The notes: generated from the sequence alone by a model not told the origin. A DNA stretch of 64,000 nucleotides from Candidatus Kaiserbacteria bacterium (GCA_016217925.1 JACRFK010000003.1:8364-72363), one strand, 5' to 3'; positions 18,600 through 52,575 are shown, counted from the first letter of the stretch. Numbers and translations: made by a program.

Positions 18600-18722
18600 C
18601 CGCCAGTCACTGCCGTTGCTCACTGAGAATCTCGAGCCGAATCAAACTATGCCCGATGGAGTCGCCCGATACTGCGGCGGCTATGTCGGGCGATTCTTTT
18701 GCTACTCCGGCTGCTGGAAAAC

Positions 18723-19469
18723 CCAAGAGGCGTCACCTCTTGGATTTGAACTCACGATTGAGTTCGGCGTAGTAGTCACGCATTTCAGCAAGCACTACGG
18801 AAAATCGAGGAAGACGGTCGATCAAGACGCTTCGTGCCGATTCATCCAGGATGCTTCGCTCTATACGCGCGACATCACTTGCGTAGTCCGGGAAACTGGA
18901 AAAAGGGTACCGCTCGAGTTTTCGCTGAAGCGCAACAAGATTGGACACCTTGCCGCGCTTCCATGAATGCTCGAATATTTCTGCGGCATTAAGATGAATA
19001 TATTGAGCAACCCGGTATAAGTATGTGTCGGTTGATACGTGCTTTGAACGAAACGGCCTCACGAAGACATTGCCGACTCGGTCATGTTTTTCGTTAAAAT
19101 ACATACTGTATCCAGTGCCGACTTTCTGCATGAATCTCGATATGCCATCATCCTCAATCTCCTGGATCAAAAGATGGTAGTGATTCCTCATCAAACTGTA
19201 TGCGCCAATCGCGACGATGGGATGCGTCCGGGGGATGCGAAGGATATCTTCGTGCTTTCGATGATAAAAGTTCTCACGGCGAATAGGTTCGCTATCATTG
19301 GCCAGATAAAGTAGCTCGGTGAATCGCTGCGCATCGAGTTCATCCATAAAGACTATACGCTTGTCTATCCCACGAGAGTAGCAGTGATACCACTCACCGG
19401 GCGCGAACGGCACTCGCCTATATCCCATCGGTCTAGGGTATCATAAATCCAAGAGGTGACGCCTCTTGG
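18723..19469 (-). mobile_element. IS200/RAYT-like element bounded by 21-bp hairpin inverted repeats
   Basis: Left end CCAAGAGG-CGTCA-CCTCTTGG (18723-18743) and right end CCAAGAGG-TGACG-CCTCTTGG (19449-19469) are exact reverse complements of each other, and each is itself a hairpin. They bracket only the transposase gene. Confidence 0.6.
18733..19428 (-). CDS. IS200-like / REP-associated HuH tyrosine transposase (RAYT-like)
   Basis: ...EWYHCYSRGIDKRIVF...D..D...F..., ...AYSLMRNHYHLLIQE... (HuH motif), later Tyr-containing helix (YRVAQYIHLN); 231 aa. Confidence 0.75.
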   Translation of the reverse strand: MGYRRVPFAPGEWYHCYSRGIDKRIVFMDELDAQRFTELLYLANDSEPIRRENFYHRKHEDILRIPRTHPIVAIGAYSLMRNHYHLLIQEIEDDGISRFMQKVGTGYSMYFNEKHDRVGNVFVRPFRSKHVSTDTYLYRVAQYIHLNAAEIFEHSWKRGKVSNLVALQRKLERYPFSSFPDYASDVARIERSILDESARSVLIDRLPRFSVVLAEMRDYYAELNREFKSKR

Positions 19470-19486
19470 ATTGTGACAAATCCACC

Positions 19487-25868: not shown

Positions 25869-27590
25869 ATGACATTCTTCCGGCGCAAAAGAACGTATAA
25901 CGAAATCGCCCCCGACGAGATATTTCTCGATTCCTCGAATTTGCCGGGACACAACGCGGTGCAATTTGAAGGCCGCGTTGTTGCCGCACTCTCCAATCGT
26001 CCGATTCTTGCCGTCGGACTTGTCTTCATTCTTATCGGCCTCGTTTTCACCGTTCGCGCTTTCAGTCTCGGGGTAGTCGACGGAACTTCGTACGCCGATA
26101 TTTCTCGGAACAACACACTCGATCGCACCATCGTCTTTGCGACGCGTGGGCTCATCCTGGATAGGAAAGGGGAAGAGCTCGCGTGGAACGAAGTCCCGAG
26201 CGGGGACGATGCGAGCCCCGCCATGGGCGGGGCGAGTACCACCCCTTATGCGTACCGAAAATACACGGCCCGCCCCGGCCTCTCGCACACTCTTGGATTT
26301 CTCCAATATCCAAAAGCGGACTCCAAGGGCAACTGGTGGCGCGAAGACTTTGTCGGTATGTCCGGCGCGGAACGCGCATTCAATGAGACGCTGAGGGGCA
26401 CCAATGGGAGTTCGATGGTAGAGACCGACGCGCGAATGCGTGTGCAGCGGGAAAACATCGTTGATCCTCCACGGCACGGCACTGATCTCCGTCTATCAAT
26501 AGATGCAGATGTAGAAAGCGAGCTGTATAAAATACTTTCGGCGAGAGCGAAAGCACAGCAGTACCAAGGAGGTGCAGCCGTCATCATGGATGTGCGCACG
26601 GGCGAATTGCTCGCGATAACAAGCTTTCCGGAATACGACAATCGCGCGTTCAATGAGGGGAGAGGGCCTGCAGTGCGTGCAACGCTCGCCGATCCGCTCA
26701 CGCCGATGCTAGACCGCGCGATAGGCGGGCAGTACGCGCCCGGCTCCATCATGAAGCTGATATTCGCGGCCGCGGCTCTCAACGAAGGGCTTATCTCTCC
26801 GAAAAAGAAGATACTTTCGAAAGGTGCCCTCGTGCTTCCGAATCCGTACGACCCCGAGCACCCGTCTATCTTCAAGGATTGGACAGAGCACGGCTGGATC
26901 GACATGCGTGAGGCAATTGCCGTATCATCGGATGAATATTTCTACACTATCGGCGGAGGATACGGCGACCAAAAAGGTCTCGGTATAACGAAGCTCGACG
27001 AGTACGCCCGCATATTCGGCATCGGCTCGACGACCGGATTTTCGCTGCCCGGAGAGGCCGCGGGGGTCATTCCCACCCCCGCCTGGAAGGCGAAGGCATT
27101 TCCGAACGACCCAACGTGGCGCACCGGAAACACGTACCACACGTCCATCGGCCAATATGGATTTCAGATCACACCCATCCAGGCGGTACGCTTTGTCGCG
27201 GCCATCGCAAATGGCGGCCACCTTCTCACCCCGCAGCTCATCGCGAGTTCAACACCGGAATCGACTCCTATTGGTATTCCCGACGAATATTTACAGATCG
27301 TACGTGAAGGGATGCGTCTCGCCGTTACATCGACGCGACGCGACGCGACGCTGAACATGTATCAGATCCCCGGCATAGAGATCGCCGGAAAGTCCGGTAC
27401 GGCACAGATCGGCGCGCGTAATGAATGGATAAATTCATGGAATGTCGGATTCTGGCCGGTCAACGACCCGCATTACGCATTTGCGGTCGTGTTCGAGCGC
27501 GCGCCCGCGGCCACGTCTGCCGGAGCCGGACACGGAGTCGTCCCATTCTTACAATGGCTGGTGGCCACGCATCCTGAATACCTTCAGTAA
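25869..27590 (+). CDS. mrdA: Penicillin-binding protein 2 (elongasome transpeptidase)
   Basis: SIMK (SxxK), SSD (SxN-like) and KSGTA (KTG) motifs; N-terminal TM; follows mreBCD. Confidence 0.85.
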   Translation: MTFFRRKRTYNEIAPDEIFLDSSNLPGHNAVQFEGRVVAALSNRPILAVGLVFILIGLVFTVRAFSLGVVDGTSYADISRNNTLDRTIVFATRGLILDRKGEELAWNEVPSGDDASPAMGGASTTPYAYRKYTARPGLSHTLGFLQYPKADSKGNWWREDFVGMSGAERAFNETLRGTNGSSMVETDARMRVQRENIVDPPRHGTDLRLSIDADVESELYKILSARAKAQQYQGGAAVIMDVRTGELLAITSFPEYDNRAFNEGRGPAVRATLADPLTPMLDRAIGGQYAPGSIMKLIFAAAALNEGLISPKKKILSKGALVLPNPYDPEHPSIFKDWTEHGWIDMREAIAVSSDEYFYTIGGGYGDQKGLGITKLDEYARIFGIGSTTGFSLPGEAAGVIPTPAWKAKAFPNDPTWRTGNTYHTSIGQYGFQITPIQAVRFVAAIANGGHLLTPQLIASSTPESTPIGIPDEYLQIVREGMRLAVTSTRRDATLNMYQIPGIEIAGKSGTAQIGARNEWINSWNVGFWPVNDPHYAFAVVFERAPAATSAGAGHGVVPFLQWLVATHPEYLQ

Positions 27591-27724
27591 GTATGGCGTA
27601 TAGGGTATGGAGTATGGAGGAAAAAAAGAATTCAGCATTCCCGCCATACACGGTACTCTATACTCTATACATTCTCGGCTTGCTACTGCAAGCCGAAACT
27701 GTATAATACGGCGCGCACAAATAT

Positions 27725-29288: not shown

Positions 29289-30344
29289 ATGGATATCGAA
29301 CTCTTGAAGAAGACCGCGAAGCAAATGGTCGCTCCGGGGAAGGGCATCCTTGCTGCCGACGAAAGTTCGGGTACGTGCCAAAAACGGTTTGAATCGGTCG
29401 GTGTGCCCTGCACCGAAGAGAATCGCCGTGCGTACCGCGAAACTCTGCTCACCGCAGACGGGCTTGAACAGTACATAAGCGGCGTCATTCTCTACGATGA
29501 GACCATCAGACAGGAGACCAATGAGGGAGAGGCGTTCGCGGCGGTACTCGAAAAGAAGGGCATCCTTCCGGGCATCAAAGTGGACACCGGGGCAAAAGAA
29601 CTGGCTCTCCATCCTGGAGAAAAGGTGACCGAAGGCCTCGACGGGCTCCGCGAGCGGCTTGCCGAGTACAAAACTTTGGGCGCACGTTTCGCCAAATGGC
29701 GTGCCGTCATCACGATAGGCAAAGATTTGCCATCCCCCGCCTGTATCCATGCAAATGCGCACGCAATGGCCCGCTATGCCGCGCTATGCCAAGAGGCCGG
29801 CATCGTGCCCATGGTGGAACCGGAAATACTCATAGACGGCGACCACAACATCGAGCGCTGCTATGAAATATCGACCGCGACTCTGAAGAAGACGTTTGAA
29901 GAACTCGCCGGGCAGGATGTCGCCGTCGAAGGGGTCATCCTCAAAACGAGCATGGTCATCGCGGGGAAACAAGCGAAGTCCGCCGAAGGCGGATCCTCCT
30001 CCGGAGGACAGTCGGGCATGGAGGAAGTCGCGAAGGAAACAATCCGCGCTTTCAAGGAAACGCTGCCCGCGGGGCTCACTGGCGTCGCGTTCCTTTCGGG
30101 CGGACAGACCGACGAGCAGGCGACGGAACACCTGAATGCGATGAATGCGACCGGCAAGCTTCCGTGGCCGCTCTCGTTCTCGTACGGGCGTGCTCTGCAA
30201 AACCCCGTCCTCAAGATTTGGGCCGAAAGTCCGAATGCGAACATCGCGAAGGCACAGGCGGCGCTACTTTTCCGCTCAAAGATGAATTCGCTCGCGACGC
30301 AAGGCAGATACTCAAGCGAGATGGAAAAAGAGCGACCGTACTGA
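29289..30344 (+). CDS. fba: Fructose-bisphosphate aldolase, class I
   Basis: ...GKGILAADESSGT..., ...LEGVILKTSMV..., ...FLSGGQ... class-I Schiff-base aldolase blocks. Contains the in-frame palindromic mini-element (see repeat feature). Confidence 0.85.
   Translation: MDIELLKKTAKQMVAPGKGILAADESSGTCQKRFESVGVPCTEENRRAYRETLLTADGLEQYISGVILYDETIRQETNEGEAFAAVLEKKGILPGIKVDTGAKELALHPGEKVTEGLDGLRERLAEYKTLGARFAKWRAVITIGKDLPSPACIHANAHAMARYAALCQEAGIVPMVEPEILIDGDHNIERCYEISTATLKKTFEELAGQDVAVEGVILKTSMVIAGKQAKSAEGGSSSGGQSGMEEVAKETIRAFKETLPAGLTGVAFLSGGQTDEQATEHLNAMNATGKLPWPLSFSYGRALQNPVLKIWAESPNANIAKAQAALLFRSKMNSLATQGRYSSEMEKERPY
29978..30008. repeat. Second copy of the 31-bp mini-element, in-frame in fba (30/31 nt identical to the atpA copy)
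   Basis: GTCCGCCGAAGGCGGATCCTCCTCCGGAGGA; encodes SAEGGSSSGGQ. Confidence 0.55.
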
Positions 30345-31024: not shown

Positions 31025-31095
31025 TGGACTTACCGGGAATCGAACCCGGGCCTCGTCAATGCGAATGACGCGTAATACCACTTTACTATAAGCCC
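31025..31095 (-). tRNA. tRNA-Ala (anticodon CGC)
   Basis: Cloverleaf with acceptor GGGCTTA/TAAGTCC including the G3:U70 Ala identity pair, anticodon loop TTCGCAT, T-loop TTCGATT. Confidence 0.75.
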
Positions 31096-31144
31096 GTATA
31101 CAACGGACCCGTGCGGAGAAATATAACAGATACAACGTATTCAC

Positions 31145-31615
31145 TCAATTCAACAGCCAGACGCCCATGGTCAGATATCCGGCAAAAATGATCCAGAGCA
31201 AATATGCCGCCATCAAATATACGGCGCGGCGGTCAATGTCGGCTGCACTTGCAGTGAGCGCGAGAACGATCGCTCCCAGGAACAAGATGTCTACGAAGGC
31301 AATAAAGGGAGAATGGAACCCAAAGAAAAACATCGTGTAACACGTACTGAAAAGTAGCTGTATGAAGAAGAAGCGCACCCATCCGGCAGTGTGGGCTGCG
31401 GGGAATTTTCTCGTCCACACAATGGCGAGTGCTGCGGCCGTCATACCGTAAAGGATCAGCCAGACAATGGTAAATGTAGTGTCTGATGGTGTGAAAGAGG
31501 GCTTATTGAGATTGGCGTACCAACTCGAGTCTCCGACATCTACGAAGAGAAATCCAATAAGGCCTGAGCCGTAAGAGGCGAGGAGGGCGATCAACACCCG
31601 AACGAGTCGGCCCAT
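31145..31615 (-). CDS. tspO: TspO/MBR (tryptophan-rich sensory protein) family
   Basis: 156 aa, 5 TM; ...SWYANLNKPSFTP...WLILYGMTAAALAIVW... Trp-rich pattern. Confidence 0.75.
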   Translation of the reverse strand: MGRLVRVLIALLASYGSGLIGFLFVDVGDSSWYANLNKPSFTPSDTTFTIVWLILYGMTAAALAIVWTRKFPAAHTAGWVRFFFIQLLFSTCYTMFFFGFHSPFIAFVDILFLGAIVLALTASAADIDRRAVYLMAAYLLWIIFAGYLTMGVWLLN

Positions 31616-31684
31616 ACAGCCTCAGCATATGCCCCTCATATTTCTGCGCTATTATGGTTATCCACACCTAAAGAGTGACACTGA

Positions 31685-31755
31685 TCGGGCCGCCGAGAAT
31701 CGAACTCGGGCTACAAGACCCCCAGCCTTGCGTACTGCCACTATACGACGGCCCG
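31685..31755 (-). tRNA. tRNA-Pro (anticodon GGG)
   Basis: Acceptor CGGGCCG/CGGCCCG, anticodon loop CTGGGGG, T-arm CCGAG-TTCGATT-CTCGG. Confidence 0.75.
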
Positions 31756-31774
31756 CGCTCGATAAAGTCTCTTG

Positions 31775-31845
31775 TCGGGCCGCCGGGAATCGAACCCGGT
31801 CTTTACGAACCCGAATCGCACGTACTACCGGTATACTACGGCCCG
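31775..31845 (-). tRNA. tRNA-Pro (anticodon CGG)
   Basis: Same acceptor stem as its neighbour; anticodon loop TTCGGGT; T-arm CCGGG-TTCGATT-CCCGG. Confidence 0.75.
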
Positions 31846-32010
31846 GCAAAAGACTTCATCGATACTCACATGCAAGGTGGTCACAAATATTTCCTCGCCG
31901 TCGCTCGGAAATTTCGCGACCCCGGCTCGCGGTCGCGCGTACTCGCGCGACATCGCTCCGCCCTGCACAGCGCGGGCAAATGTGCCGTAGGGCACATTTT
32001 CCCGTCGCTG

Positions 32011-32084
32011 TGCACCTTTCAGGATTCGAACCTGAGACCTTTCGAATGTGAATCGAACGCTCTAACCAACTGAGCTAAAGGTGC
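32011..32084 (-). tRNA. tRNA-Val (anticodon CAC)
   Basis: GCACCTT acceptor, D-arm GCTC-AGTTGGTTA-GAGC, anticodon loop TTCACAT, T-loop TTCGAAT. Confidence 0.8.
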
Positions 32085-32289
32085 GTCCCGCATCCGTTAA
32101 CACTGAGCCCCGACGCTTACGGTCGGGGCCCCGACTGAAACGTCGGGGCTAAAGGTGCGTTGTGGGATTATAACGGCTAGCGAGTCGAACCGCGAGTGCT
32201 TGCACTCATGGTCGGCGAGCGAAGACGTTATATGGTACTCCATATAACGGGTGGCGGGTAAACGGGGAAGCTGGTATACTTTATTCTCA

Positions 32290-33246
32290 ATGGAGTACAA
32301 GATCTTCAGCCTGGGGGCAAACGATGAGCTCGCGAAGAAAATAGCTGCGCGCCTCGGGATGCCTCTCGGAGAGATCAAATGCCGCTCGTTCAGCGATGGC
32401 GAACAGCAAGTGCAATTTTTGGAGAACTTGCGCGGGAAAGACGTGTTCCTCATCCAGCCGACGAATCCTCCTGCCGAGAACTGGGTACGTCTTCTTCTTG
32501 CGATTGACGCTGCGCGCAACGCGTCGGCACGCGAGGTTACCGCTGTCGTTCCGTACTTCGGTTACTCGCGCCAAGACCGCAAGTCAAAACCCCGTGAACC
32601 GATCTCGGCAAGCGTCTTTGCAAAGACGCTTGAAGGTGTCGGTGCCACCCGACTGCTCACGATGGATCTTCACAATGACGCCATCGGTGGTTTTTTCCGG
32701 CGCACCATCGTGGACAATCTCTACGCTCGACGGGTCTTCATTTCTCATTTTCGCGATGTATTCAAAGACGCGCTTGCTGCTGACGATCTCGTCGTTGTCT
32801 CACCCGACGCGGGCGGTGTCGTCCGCGCTCAATCGTACGCCAAGCGGCTCATGAAGTCAGCCGACCTTGCCATCATCCACAAAGAGCGCGAGATACCCAA
32901 TCAGATAGCGCGCATGAAGCTTATCGGAGACGTGAAGGGGAAAATCGCGCTCATCACAGACGACATGGCGGATACCTGCGGTACCTTGGCACGCGCATCC
33001 GCGCTTCTCATGGAAAATGGCGCAAAAGAAGTGTACGCGATGGCAACACACGGAGTCCTCTCGGGTGAGGCAATGAAGACCCTCGAGGCCTCTCCCATCA
33101 AGAAGCTCTTCATCACCGATACGATAAACGGCAATCGCGAGCTAGGGACAAAGATAGAGGTCGTGTCGGTAGGCGACACCTTCGGCGACGCCATAGAGCG
33201 CATTGAATCGGGGGAGTCGCTCAGCGCTCTATTTGAAACCGAATAG
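32290..33246 (+). CDS. prs: Ribose-phosphate pyrophosphokinase
   Basis: ...MEYKIFSLGANDELAKKIA...RSFSDGE...VVPYFGYSRQDRK...TDDMADTCGT... PRPP synthetase motifs. Confidence 0.9.
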   Translation: MEYKIFSLGANDELAKKIAARLGMPLGEIKCRSFSDGEQQVQFLENLRGKDVFLIQPTNPPAENWVRLLLAIDAARNASAREVTAVVPYFGYSRQDRKSKPREPISASVFAKTLEGVGATRLLTMDLHNDAIGGFFRRTIVDNLYARRVFISHFRDVFKDALAADDLVVVSPDAGGVVRAQSYAKRLMKSADLAIIHKEREIPNQIARMKLIGDVKGKIALITDDMADTCGTLARASALLMENGAKEVYAMATHGVLSGEAMKTLEASPIKKLFITDTINGNRELGTKIEVVSVGDTFGDAIERIESGESLSALFETE

Positions 33247-33339
33247 GTGAATGCTAAGGTAGAACGCATCGCTCCCATATTTCATATGGAAGCGGCGTTC
33301 AGGGAAAGTGAATGCTTGCATTCACTTTGCCCCTCACTT

Positions 33340-33411
33340 GCTCCCATAGTTTAATGGATAGAACGTAAGCTTCCGGAGCTTATGATCGAGGTTCGATTCC
33401 TCGTGGGAGCA
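33340..33411 (+). tRNA. tRNA-Arg (anticodon CCG)
   Basis: Acceptor GCTCCCA/TGGGAGC, anticodon loop TTCCGGA, T-arm CGAGG-TTCGATT-CCTCG. Confidence 0.8.
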
Positions 33412-33461
33412 CAAACGATTGCTCGCGTTGACGTTTTTGTTTTGTTAAGATGCTCCGCGAC

Positions 33462-33534
33462 GGGCCATTAGCTCACTTGGTAGAGCGCTTCCATGGCATG
33501 GAAGAGGTAACCGGTTCGATTCCGGTATGGTCCA
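33462..33534 (+). tRNA. tRNA-Ala (anticodon GGC)
   Basis: Acceptor GGGCCAT/ATGGTCC with G3:U70, D-arm GCTC-ACTTGGTA-GAGC, anticodon loop ATGGCAT. Confidence 0.8.
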
Positions 33535-41454: not shown

Positions 41455-42381
41455 ATGGAGGGTAAACATCGAAGTGTTCTTTTACATGAAGCAATTGAAC
41501 AGTTGGCGATAGAACCAGACGATACGGTACTGGACGCGACACTCGGCGGTGCGGGTCACGCACTCGCGATTGCGCAAAAGCTCGACAAGGGGGGAACCCT
41601 TATCGGGATAGATGCAGATCACGATGCGGTAGTCCGCGCACAAGAAGCGCTCGCAGGTGTTGCGCCGAAAGTGCATCTCGTCGAGGGAAACTTCCGCAAT
41701 CTGAAAGCGGAGCTCGACAAACTCGGCGTCGCGTACATAACGAAAGCCCTCTTCGATTTAGGGTGGAGCTCATTTCAGCTCGACTCCGGAAGAGGATTCT
41801 CGTTGAAAGCAGATGAACCGCTTCTCATGACCTACTCCTCCTCCGAAGGAGGATCGGCCTCCGGCGGAAAGGACCCCGGCGCGCTTACGGCGGCGGCAAT
41901 CGTCAATGAGTGGTCCGAGGAATCGATCGCGGACGTCATCTTTGGGTGGGGCGAAGAGCGGTACTCGCGGCGTATTGCGAAGTGCATCGTGGAAAGACGC
42001 GAAAAGAAACCTTTCACGACCGCACGCGAGCTTGCAGAAGCCATCTACGAGGCGGTGCCTCCGAGATACCGCTTCGGCAAAATCCATCCCGCTACGCGCA
42101 CGTTCCAGGCACTGCGTATCGCGGTCAACGATGAGCTGGGGAGCCTATCGCAGGGACTCGCCGACGGATGGCAAGCGCTGTCGTGCGGCGGACGTATCGC
42201 GGTAATCACGTTCCACTCCATCGAAGACAGGCTCGTCAAACAAACGTTCAAGCAATGGGAGGAGGCGGGGGAGGGCAAACGCGTAACAAAAAAGCCCATC
42301 GTTGCCGGTGAGACAGAAACCTCCTCAAATCCAAGGTCCCGCAGCGCTAAATTGCGCGTCATCCAGAAAGTCCCGACGTAA
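41455..42381 (+). CDS. rsmH: 16S rRNA (cytosine1402-N4)-methyltransferase RsmH
   Basis: ...HRSVLLHEAIEQL...LDATLGGAGHA..., ...GGRIAVITFHSIEDRLVK... Contains an inverted copy of the in-frame mini-element. Confidence 0.85.
   Translation: MEGKHRSVLLHEAIEQLAIEPDDTVLDATLGGAGHALAIAQKLDKGGTLIGIDADHDAVVRAQEALAGVAPKVHLVEGNFRNLKAELDKLGVAYITKALFDLGWSSFQLDSGRGFSLKADEPLLMTYSSSEGGSASGGKDPGALTAAAIVNEWSEESIADVIFGWGEERYSRRIAKCIVERREKKPFTTARELAEAIYEAVPPRYRFGKIHPATRTFQALRIAVNDELGSLSQGLADGWQALSCGGRIAVITFHSIEDRLVKQTFKQWEEAGEGKRVTKKPIVAGETETSSNPRSRSAKLRVIQKVPT
41836..41869. repeat. Third copy of the mini-element, reverse-complement orientation, in-frame in rsmH
   Basis: TCCTCCTCCGAAGGAGGATCGGCCTCCGGCGGA matches the reverse complement of the atpA copy with 2 mismatches in the ~30-nt core; encodes SSSEGGSASGG. 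Confidence 0.5.
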
Positions 42382-50948: not shown

Positions 50949-50976
50949 TTTTTACTACTAACTACCAACTATTCCT

Positions 50977-52575
50977 ATGGATTCAGCAACCGTCGAGAAG
51001 ATAATCAAAGAGATAGGCAACATCGCACCTGCACACGAAGGTGAGCACGTAGGCCGGGTGGTCGCGGTCGGCGACGGCGTTGTCGCCATCGACGGACTTT
51101 CCAAGGCGGTGATGAGCGAAGTGCTCCTCTTCGAAGAGGGCAAAGGCAAGAAGCTGAAGGATACATTGTCCGCCGGAGGCGGATCCTCCTCCGGAGGAGA
51201 AACACAGGGGGAACTCTACGGCCTCATTTTGAACCTCGAAGAAGACGGCGTGCGCGCGACCATTCTTGGCGACACTGCCCGTGTGAGCGAAGGCATGACC
51301 GTCAAATCGACCGGAAGGATCCTCTCGGTGCCGGCAAGCGAAGAGCTGCTCGGCCGGGTAGTGAATGCCCTCGGCGAGCCGATAGACGGTAAAGGACCAT
51401 TCAAGAAAACGAAACTCATGCCGATAGAACGACAAGCGGCGGGTGTTATCGACCGCAAGTCGGTGTCGGTCCCACTTGCGACCGGTACCAAAGCAATTGA
51501 CGCGATGATTCCCATCGGTCGCGGCCAACGCGAGCTCATCATCGGCGACCGCGGCACGGGGAAGACCACTGTCGCCATTGACGCCATCATCAACCAAAAG
51601 TACGAACCGGAAGCGACCCGCCCCATCTGCATCTATGTCGCCATCGGCCAGAAGGAGAGTAAGACCGCACGCATCGCGCAGCAATTGCGCGAACAGGGTG
51701 CGATGGACTACACCATCATCGTCGACGCTCCCGCGTCCGCTCCCGCCGCGCTCCAGTACCTGTCGCCGTTTAGCGGCGTTGCCATCGGTGAATACTTCAT
51801 GGACAAAGGCCGCGACGTCCTCATTGTCTATGATGACCTCTCCAAGCAGGCTACCGCTTACCGTCAGCTCTCGCTCCTTCTGCGCCGTCCGCCGGGTCGC
51901 GAAGCGTATCCGGGCGACGTATTTTACTTACACTCGCGATTACTTGAACGCGCATGCCGCCTGAACGAGGAAAAGGGCGGCGGTTCTATCACAGCGCTCC
52001 CTATCATCGAGACGCAGGAAGGCGACGTCTCCGGATACATCCCGACCAACGTCATCTCCATCACCGACGGCCAGATGTTCCTCGTGGCTGACCTCTTCAA
52101 CAAAGGCATCAAGCCGGCCATCGACGTCGGCATCTCGGTCTCACGCGTCGGTTCCGCCGCGCAGACCAAGGCGATGAAAGGCGTCGCCGGCGGCATCAAG
52201 CTGGAGCTCGCGCAATTCCGCGAGCTTGAAGCATTCATGCAATTCGCTTCAGACCTCGACAAAGCCACTGCCGACCGCATCGAATCGGGCCGCCGCATGG
52301 TGGAGGTCTTGAAACAGAAAAACGGCGCTCCGATACCCCTCGAGCGTCAGGTCGCCGCGTTGTACGCCGCAGGACACGCGTTTTTTCTCGACGTACCGGT
52401 GAATAAAGTTACCGAAGTCGAGCGTCAGCTCATGGAATTTCTCGATGGTCAGTACTCGAAAACTCTTGCAGCTATCAAGAAGACGGGCCAACTTTCCGAG
52501 GACGCGAAGAAAGAGCTGAACAATGCGATGGAGGAGTTCAGGCTTGCGCATCCGGAGTTGTTTGCGACGAAATAA
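50977..52575 (+). CDS. atpA: ATP synthase F1 subunit alpha
   Basis: ...GDRGTGKT... P-loop, ...VYVAIGQK..., ...DDLSKQA... Carries a ~24-aa Gly/Ser-rich insertion in the N-terminal barrel, encoded by the palindromic mini-element. Confidence 0.9.
51168..51198. repeat. 31-bp double-palindrome mini-element (GTCCGCCGGAGGC-GGATCC-TCCTCCGGAGGA) in-frame in atpA
   Basis: Contains the hairpin CCGCC-GGA-GGCGG and the perfect 12-bp palindrome TCCTCCGGAGGA; encodes [11 protein letters not shown]. Confidence 0.55.

Follow-up and report, generated by a model that had tools for sequence, protein, structure and literature searches.

Why does the reading frame of a glycolytic enzyme carry a block of palindromic DNA that recurs almost unchanged in an unrelated gene? 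The question is raised by the gene for a class I fructose-bisphosphate aldolase in a 64,000-nt stretch of a Candidatus Kaiserbacteria genome (GCA_016217925.1, JACRFK010000003.1:8364-72363), called the window below, where a first-pass annotation had noticed a palindromic mini-element of 31 nt at 29978-30008 (+) with a near-identical copy in atpA. In this study, we concluded that the element is one copy of a 30-bp twin-hairpin repeat, and that such repeats are likely to be non-autonomous mobile DNA, multiplying inside the genomes of Patescibacteria (Kaiserbacteria-like and other Parcubacteria/Paceibacteria) and passing from one to another.

The 31-mer was present exactly as described, in frame in an open reading frame (ORF) at 29289-30344 (+) that encodes a 351-aa protein, and the assignment to class I aldolase was borne out by Pfam (PF00274, E 4e-128) and by the structure 3mmt_A (PDB, E 6e-114). 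Its position and its palindromic character stood, but its length did not: when 150 nt around each copy were aligned, the similarity ended at the edges of a common unit of 30 nt (29979-30008, +), and the leading G belongs to the flank, as position -1 is T, G or C across the family. This first, forward copy, TCCGCCGAAGGCGGATCCTCCTCCGGAGGA, is built of stems TCCGCC/GGCGGA and then TCCTCC/GGAGGA with loops GAA and TCC, and it encodes aldolase residues 231-240 in the context ...GKQAK-SAEGGSSSGG-QSGMEE..., with a flanking Lys directly before the start of the insert (...K-SAEGGSSSGGQSGMEEVAK...). The copy in atpA (51168-51198, +) showed the single G/A difference that had been reported for it (1 mismatch over 30 nt) and was the sole other match in the window within 3 mismatches, with 0 matches in 100 shuffles. 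Its unit (51169-51198, +) is also forward, with loops GGA and TCC, and specifies 10 residues in the N-terminal beta-barrel domain of the F1 ATP synthase alpha subunit (50977-52575, +; 532 aa; Pfam PF00006, PF00306 and PF02874), in which the PF02874 match was broken before residue 77. The inventory of two copies was correct for what it listed, and it had overlooked how widely the repeat occurs in the lineage, its presence in intergenic DNA and tRNA genes, and a third copy in the window. The latter (41839-41868, -) is inverted relative to the other two, its reverse complement being TCCGCCGGAGGCCGATCCTCCTTCGGAGGA; in the repeat search it had 2 mismatches from the atpA copy and lay in frame in rsmH/mraW, where the + strand reads SSEGGSASGG. 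This gene for the 16S rRNA m4C1402 methyltransferase (41455-42381, +; Pfam PF01795, E 1e-91) was given the start of the database protein P0241 (308 aa, 100% identical). A degenerate search of the 64-kb window found no copies beyond these three.

The closest orthologues of all three window proteins lack the block, and it is therefore an insertion. Among aldolases, the closest homologues (92-93% identical, 342 aa, one of them named Kaiserbacteria) were without it, and the four closest (P0001, P0002, P0004 and P0005) read GKKAA(Q/K)(P/Q)A(S/G)MEE at the site. The gene order glpX-fba-DUF998-TspO is common to the window and the loci L106-L108, which have no insert, and a DNA alignment of the aldolase locus with syntenic L107 (86% identical) left a 27-nt gap. 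The loop had been said to be about 9 residues longer than usual; this held against the closest orthologues (net 9, with one adjoining codon also different), and against 3mmt, the best solved structure, the gap was exactly the 10 residues SAEGGSSSGG. An unrelated Gly/Ser loop shared by the orthologues had been named as the finding that would make the nucleotide identity a coincidence, and we looked for it; on re-alignment, the orthologues had no such loop and 119 of 120 homologues were short-looped, which supports the earlier reading. In the few other aldolases with an insert in this loop, the insert is another member of the repeat family, such as the 10-residue insert of P0106, four residues upstream of the window site, and S(D/A)QGGSASGR in P0105 and P0031.

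The same pattern was found at the other sites. In AtpA the site was empty (..DSM|ETQ..) in most of 120 orthologues, including the nearest relatives (94% identical), and this one inter-codon site has been struck by three different family members. In RsmH it was empty (..TYS|KE..) in most orthologues, with the insert also present in P0242, P0245, P0267 and locus L037. Insert-bearing proteins had empty nearest relatives at 88-97% identity, which argues that gains or precise losses recur. Insertions were also shared at the same position between related genomes (L037 with the window; L034 with L048). A base-exact 30-bp gain, with no target base doubled, was seen in a tRNA-Glu fragment of locus L092, which reads CCCTTT-[30 nt]-CACGG where the intact neighbouring gene has CCCTTTCACGG. 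The flanks of different copies are unrelated, and the recent common origin proposed for the inserted DNA is supported by hundreds of such copies in other genomes.

The distribution of the repeat was examined in a species-level scan (one genome per species) for TCCGCCGRAGGCSGATCCTCCTYCGGAGGA, in which the listed counts are lower bounds and the taxonomic limits provisional. The 30-mer occurred in at least 105 stretches from 46 assemblies. Among the matches listed, nearly all carriers were labelled Patescibacteria (Kaiser-, Lipton-, Jorgensen- and Nomurabacteria, Parcubacteria, Paceibacterota and Patescibacteria group), and several records were named just 'bacterium'. One copy-bearing 8-kb contig (L093) was binned as Omnitrophica, and a comparison of its ORFs with those of other loci was not decisive on mis-binning. 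Metagenome-assembled genomes (MAGs) deposited as 'uncultured Candidatus Saccharibacteria' (third-party annotation assemblies; L037, L048, L103 and others) were also among the carriers; this label appears to be wrong, judging from L037, which shares the rsmH insertion of the window with closely similar flanks. A looser pattern, TCCNCCNNNGGNGGATCCNCCNNNGGNGGA, in which the loops and one base pair in each of the two stems were allowed to vary, matched at least 120 metagenome contigs. Several loci came from groundwater samples of Hainich and Rifle. The commonest metagenome form among the matches listed has TCCGCC/GGCGGA stems in both hairpins and variable N-R-A loops, so the window form is a subfamily; judged from protein sequence, AtpA inserts such as SAQGRSASGG in other proteins fit this double form. 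About three quarters of the copies lie inside long ORFs, and about a quarter lie in intergenic DNA or in the anticodon loops of tRNA gene fragments. Carriage by phages was considered and rejected, with 0 matches among IMG/VR viral contigs. Literature searches by keyword and by literal sequence, covering mostly papers outside subscription journals, returned only general reviews and cloning primers and no description of the repeat.

The palindrome recognized in the first-pass annotation is real, but it folds as two hairpins rather than as a single palindrome. The window form reads TCCGCC-GRA-GGCGGA and then TCCTCC-TYC-GGAGGA, giving two 6-bp stems with 3-nt loops, and the general form is TCCGCC-NRA-GGCGGA-TCC(G/T)CC-TYN-GG(C/A)GGA. 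Folding predictions gave twin hairpins for both strands (DNA, -10.7 kcal/mol; RNA, -17.4 kcal/mol). The stem sequence GGCGGA would correspond to the EciI site. Across 25 distinct variants, this pairing was kept in 96% of cells and 5 pairs changed on both sides (for example G4:C12 to A:T, T1:A15 to C:G and T19:A27 to G:C), values that were reached by 0 of 500 shuffles and by no shifted register; these compensatory changes support the twin-hairpin fold. The two halves are 13/15 complementary, and a single 15-bp hairpin or cruciform was rejected as the selected structure because it showed zero covariation. Lone half-sites numbered just 4 in 750 kb, probably by chance, and their near-absence suggests that the 30-mer acts as one indivisible unit. 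No longer, autonomous element with the two halves at its ends was found in the 750 kb searched. No Rfam family matched the repeat, the only Rfam matches in the window being tRNAs.

The unit spans 10 codons, is free of stop codons in all six frames, and is built of the reverse-complementary codon pairs TCC/GGA and GCC/GGC, so phase 0 reads S-A-x-G-G-S-(A/S)-x-G-G in either orientation. The phase 0 peptides are SA(E/G)GGSSSGG for forward copies and SS(E/G)GGSASGG for inverted ones.

A second mini-insert was observed, a 16-nt palindrome TCCGCC-AGCT-GGCGGA (TCCGCCAGCTGGCGGA; loop also AGCC or GGCT) with the stem of hairpin 1 of the 30-mer. It encodes x-P-P-A-G-G, with a net gain of 4 residues despite its 16 nt. 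In RsmH and AtpA it occupies the inter-codon sites used by the 30-mer, and it also lies in another aldolase loop (L109 1950-1965, L110 1695-1710, L111 629-644; L057 5647, L078 1859, L096 5638). In the MAG CAZYWN01, which has at least 18 stretches with the 30-mer, the repeat also forms the centre of a palindrome of about 150 nt that lies between genes and is composed of heptamer arrays (TAAATCC...GGATTTA), with at least 4 similar copies (L004 4600-4810, L028, L059 60-260 and L062 2090-2240). In L098 (1053-1154), two 30-mers lie 72 nt apart in one ORF through tandem duplication of a copy plus its flanks.

The insertion site showed a clear base preference. Position -2 was T in 77 of 110 copies and position +2 was A in 96 of 110 at the species-genome loci, and in an independent metagenome set the counts were 107 and 105 of 126, respectively. 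The preferred site, T-N|N-A, is symmetric, and its T and A belong to the target rather than to the element, since they are already present in the uninterrupted tRNA-Glu gene. The target is not duplicated, as 102 of 111 copies had no flanking direct repeat. A 7-bp target duplication was rejected: 7-nt repeats surrounded only 11-13 copies and are explained by insertion into existing heptamer arrays, 317 period-7 arrays being present in 780 kb with just 12 touching a copy. Intergenic DNA in these genomes abounds in such A+T-rich tandem arrays (4-5 copies of a 6- or 7-nt unit, about 30 nt in all), those of period 6 numbering 361 in 780 kb. Insertion at the tips of larger hairpins was also rejected, because the flanks were no more complementary than control T-N|N-A sites.

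In tRNA-Glu fragments the repeat is found time and again between anticodon positions 35 and 36, in both orientations, and apparently at the same position, by eye, in tRNA-Ser and Gln-like fragments. All tRNA copies examined sit in truncated gene fragments, usually beside an intact tRNA, and at each such locus for which ARAGORN reported a tRNA gene, an intact tRNA lay alongside. A recurrent order was observed, namely a tRNA-Glu fragment split by the 30-mer (35|36), a small GIY-YIG nuclease gene and then an intact tRNA-Glu (L100 390-810, with the GIY-YIG protein encoded at 474-755, L072, L207, L102, L026, L092 2985-3205 and L104 1040-1180), and L026 carries a tandem duplication of the GIY-YIG/tRNA unit. 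This arrangement may be a homing cassette aimed at tRNA-Glu. Of the 13 places where GIY-YIG genes occur, 7 have the repeat no more than 75 nt away.

Inside genes, the reading phase of the repeat is strongly biased. Among 141 copies well inside long ORFs, 123 (87%) were in phase 0, 11 in a Pro/acidic phase and 7 in an Arg-rich phase, whereas T-N|N-A sites alone would give 47% phase 0 (excess, p 1e-23). The two orientations were equally common (33 vs 35). Older copies that have diverged or shortened stay in frame (STGG, SAGG, SSGG) and shrink in multiples of three. Host genes include those for aldolase, AtpA, RsmH, DnaK, DnaJ, DnaG, aminoacyl-tRNA synthetases, S3, S19 and TrmD; by eye, several phase 0 copies form the C-terminal tails of proteins that look ribosomal, and a few Pro/acidic-phase copies lie in real genes (LeuRS-like and LigA-like). 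The phase 0 excess, together with the in-frame divergence and shrinkage, speaks for translation of the block and for the past loss of harmful insertions through selection.

In the aldolase, an AlphaFold2 model built with 66 sequences had a mean predicted local distance difference test score (pLDDT) of 92 and a predicted template modelling score of 0.91. Residues 230-240, that is, the insert, are the sole segment with pLDDT below 50, and they form a coil between the strand 217-220 and the helix 244-258. K219 on this strand was invariant in the homologue alignment, and we take it by homology to be the Schiff-base lysine, matching Lys229 of rabbit muscle aldolase. With regard to the position of the loop relative to the active-site Lys, which the earlier reading had proposed to model, the prediction thus places the insert in the coil that follows the strand holding K219. 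The loop is permissive, since other aldolases carry family members there at a neighbouring position.

Considering these results, we propose a model for the spread of the repeat that we consider likely. The repeat enters DNA as an exact 30-bp block, in either orientation and without duplication, preferring T-N|N-A. Insertion would be largely blind to reading phase, with purifying selection removing harmful events, and the survivors would lie in permissive surface loops and at protein termini, where phase 0 predominates and the Pro/acidic phase is rare, or else between genes and in tRNA gene fragments that the cell can do without. The aldolase copy would be translated as a disordered coil extension of 10 residues between the beta6 strand with K219 and the next helix, and it is probably near neutral. 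The moving enzyme would act in trans and read the hairpin structure, probably on single-stranded DNA; an enzyme of this kind is our best guess given the covariation of the hairpins and the lack of duplication. Candidates would be an HUH/Y1 enzyme of the IS200 kind or of the kind encoded by transposase genes associated with repetitive extragenic palindromes (REP-associated tyrosine transposases, RAYTs), or a nuclease that recognizes DNA structure, for which the small GIY-YIG proteins are an example.

The window itself contains a Y1_Tnp gene (18733-19428, -; IS200/RAYT-like, PF01797, HYH motif) with inverted 28-nt hairpins around it (18720-18747 and 19445-19472; TCCAAGAGG-N5-CCTCTTGGA). From its sequence, this gene with its hairpins looks like a REP/RAYT arrangement in a genome of the candidate phyla radiation. 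In a search for a gene recurrently beside copies, 923 neighbouring ORFs were clustered, and only housekeeping hosts and the GIY-YIG/tRNA-Glu context emerged.

Several observations weigh against the repeat being mobile DNA of this kind. No enzyme could be tied to it by the clustering of neighbouring ORFs or by comparison with RAYT-like hairpins, and GIY-YIG, the sole recurrent non-host neighbour, is confined to the tRNA-Glu cassettes. The hairpins around the RAYT-like genes of the window, L052 and L064 are specific to each genome and differ from the 30-mer, which adjoins RAYT-like genes no more often than by chance. The symmetric target and the equal orientations are unlike those of IS200/IS605 elements, which insert 3' of a one-sided target of 4-5 nt, and REP-like repeats are normally genome-specific, the same stem across many genera being unusual. 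The AtpA model was too poor to place the insert (mean pLDDT 60). We infer the translation of the insert from sequence patterns, and likewise ongoing mobility from the patchy distribution and comparative patterns; no near-identical genome pair differing by one copy was found.

Four other explanations were weighed. The repeat could be a DNA signal with a host function, for instance a site bound by a protein of the nucleoid, of segregation, of restriction-modification or of DNA uptake; biased recombination or uptake, and not transposition, would then have spread it, with its coding copies tolerated. Its stems are nearly invariant across many genera and its loops variable, as if a protein reads the stems, the centre of the repeat is the palindrome GGATCC, and the DNA-uptake sequences of other bacteria also occur in coding regions, in tolerated frames. 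We nevertheless hold this to be unlikely, because the copies are exact 30-bp additions against empty sites instead of accumulated substitutions, biased uptake cannot make copies at new loci, the density is low (3 per 64 kb), and the AtpA site was struck by three family members. Even less probable, in our judgement, is a flexible Ser/Gly linker selected at the protein level in each host, with nucleotide identity maintained by gene conversion or codon preference. The resemblance of the peptide to an engineered flexible linker and its in-frame retention in essential enzymes would agree with it, but about a quarter of the copies are intergenic or in tRNA fragments, both orientations occur, the codons are identical although G+C is 55% in the window and 44% in the metagenome loci, the LeuRS- and LigA-like ORFs identified by eye read the repeat in a second phase, and the closest orthologues lack the block.

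We give slightly less credence still to the idea that the 30 nt are untranslated, either cut out of the RNA in the manner of an intron or bypassed in translation as happens in T4 gene 60 and with the bypass elements of yeast mitochondria. Two stable RNA hairpins (-17.4 kcal/mol) and copies in tRNA anticodon loops, where introns normally sit, speak for it; reading phase would then be irrelevant, yet 87% of copies are in phase 0, and diverged or partly deleted copies keep the frame despite damaged hairpins. The tRNA copies examined moreover lie in truncated fragments, usually beside an intact tRNA, and Rfam gave no match. Finally, a linker, adaptor or assembly chimera is brought to mind by the BamHI site, the look of a synthetic Gly/Ser linker and the fact that substrings match only cloning primers in the literature. 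Such an artefact is hardly credible for a repeat found in MAGs of many independent projects and assemblers, nearly always in frame, with diverged, compensated and partly deleted variants and with positions shared between related genomes (L037; L034 with L048). Mobile, non-autonomous DNA thus remains the explanation that we prefer.

Among known systems, the Rickettsia palindromic elements (RPEs) are selfish palindromes with many in-frame insertions in unrelated housekeeping genes, translated and compatible with the protein fold (PMC10969869). They are the closest in behaviour, as the 30-mer likewise lies repeatedly in frame in unrelated conserved genes. However, RPEs form several families of about 100-150 bp in Rickettsia and encode peptides of about 30-50 residues, whereas the 30-mer of Patescibacteria has 30 bp and 10 residues and is about five times smaller; unlike an RPE, it is a bare hairpin pair that gives the same kind of peptide in both orientations. 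Judged by host and length, homology between the two is unlikely. REPs resemble the 30-mer in being G+C-rich imperfect palindromes of 20-40 nt recognized through hairpins, and in REPINs paired inverted units are mobile. REPs are described as usually carrying a GTAG or CGTC tag (PMC3733652). The 30-mer ends in TCC...GGA and has no such tag, its only flank signal being the T at -2 and the A at +2; REPs are extragenic and match the hairpins flanking their own RAYT gene, whereas the 30-mer is mostly intragenic and differs from the local RAYT hairpins.

Bacterial miniature inverted-repeat transposable elements (Correia, ERIC, BOX, RUP and others) are also short and non-autonomous, with inverted-repeat symmetry and in-frame fusion to genes (PMC10969869). 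At typically 50-500 bp they have terminal inverted repeats around an internal segment and duplicate their target, whereas the 30-mer has neither internal segment nor duplication. Palindrome-associated elements derived from IS200/IS605 share the lack of target duplication, and they have end hairpins and a single-strand DNA chemistry. They need sub-terminal hairpins with guide and cleavage sequences and insert in one orientation; the 30-mer has a symmetric target, and both of its orientations occur at the same tRNA-Glu site, unlike this one-way insertion. DNA uptake sequences arise by substitution at about one per kb, in contrast to 30-bp additions at 3 in 64 kb. The mobile GC clusters of yeast mitochondria are very short G+C-rich palindromic inserts in an A+T-richer genome, sometimes in coding genes. 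The bypass elements of yeast belong to another host and compartment and are skipped by the ribosome, whereas the phase bias of the 30-mer argues for translation. The 30-mer is apparently undescribed in the literature searched, although by analogy its behaviour would be familiar from RPEs, and its size and hairpins from REP/RAYT repeats.

A bolder version of the model, which we put forward tentatively and regard as somewhat doubtful, is that this codon-palindromic 30-bp hairpin pair is the smallest bacterial transposable unit yet seen, shaped for intragenic life and moved by a mechanism outside the described transposase families through blunt, duplication-free insertion at T-N|N-A, possibly by a structure-specific GIY-YIG or HUH enzyme. 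In this version the 30-mer and its 16-nt relative would continually supply the proteomes of candidate-phyla-radiation bacteria with new surface loops and tails. If the repeat is mobile, selfish DNA can persist in the tiny, streamlined genomes of Patescibacteria by hiding in the reading frames of core enzymes, the colonised hosts covering glycolysis, ATP synthase, the ribosome, chaperones and tRNA synthetases. Its copies would amount to a natural experiment that shows where in a protein a flexible insert of 10 residues is tolerated, and they would explain recurrent Ser/Ala/Gly insertions that upset alignments and domain matches, such as that of PF02874 in AtpA, and that could mislead phylogenies and orthology calls. 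They would also point to an activity that inserts very short DNA substrates and that might prove useful as a tool.

Two further features of the window were recorded. Six tRNA genes lie within 2.5 kb (31025-33534), with similar neighbours at 31685-31755 and 31775-31845, and 0 of the 6 is interrupted by the repeat. Tandem arrays are located at 27590-27619, 27654-27670 and 50954-50971, one of them just upstream of the atpA start.
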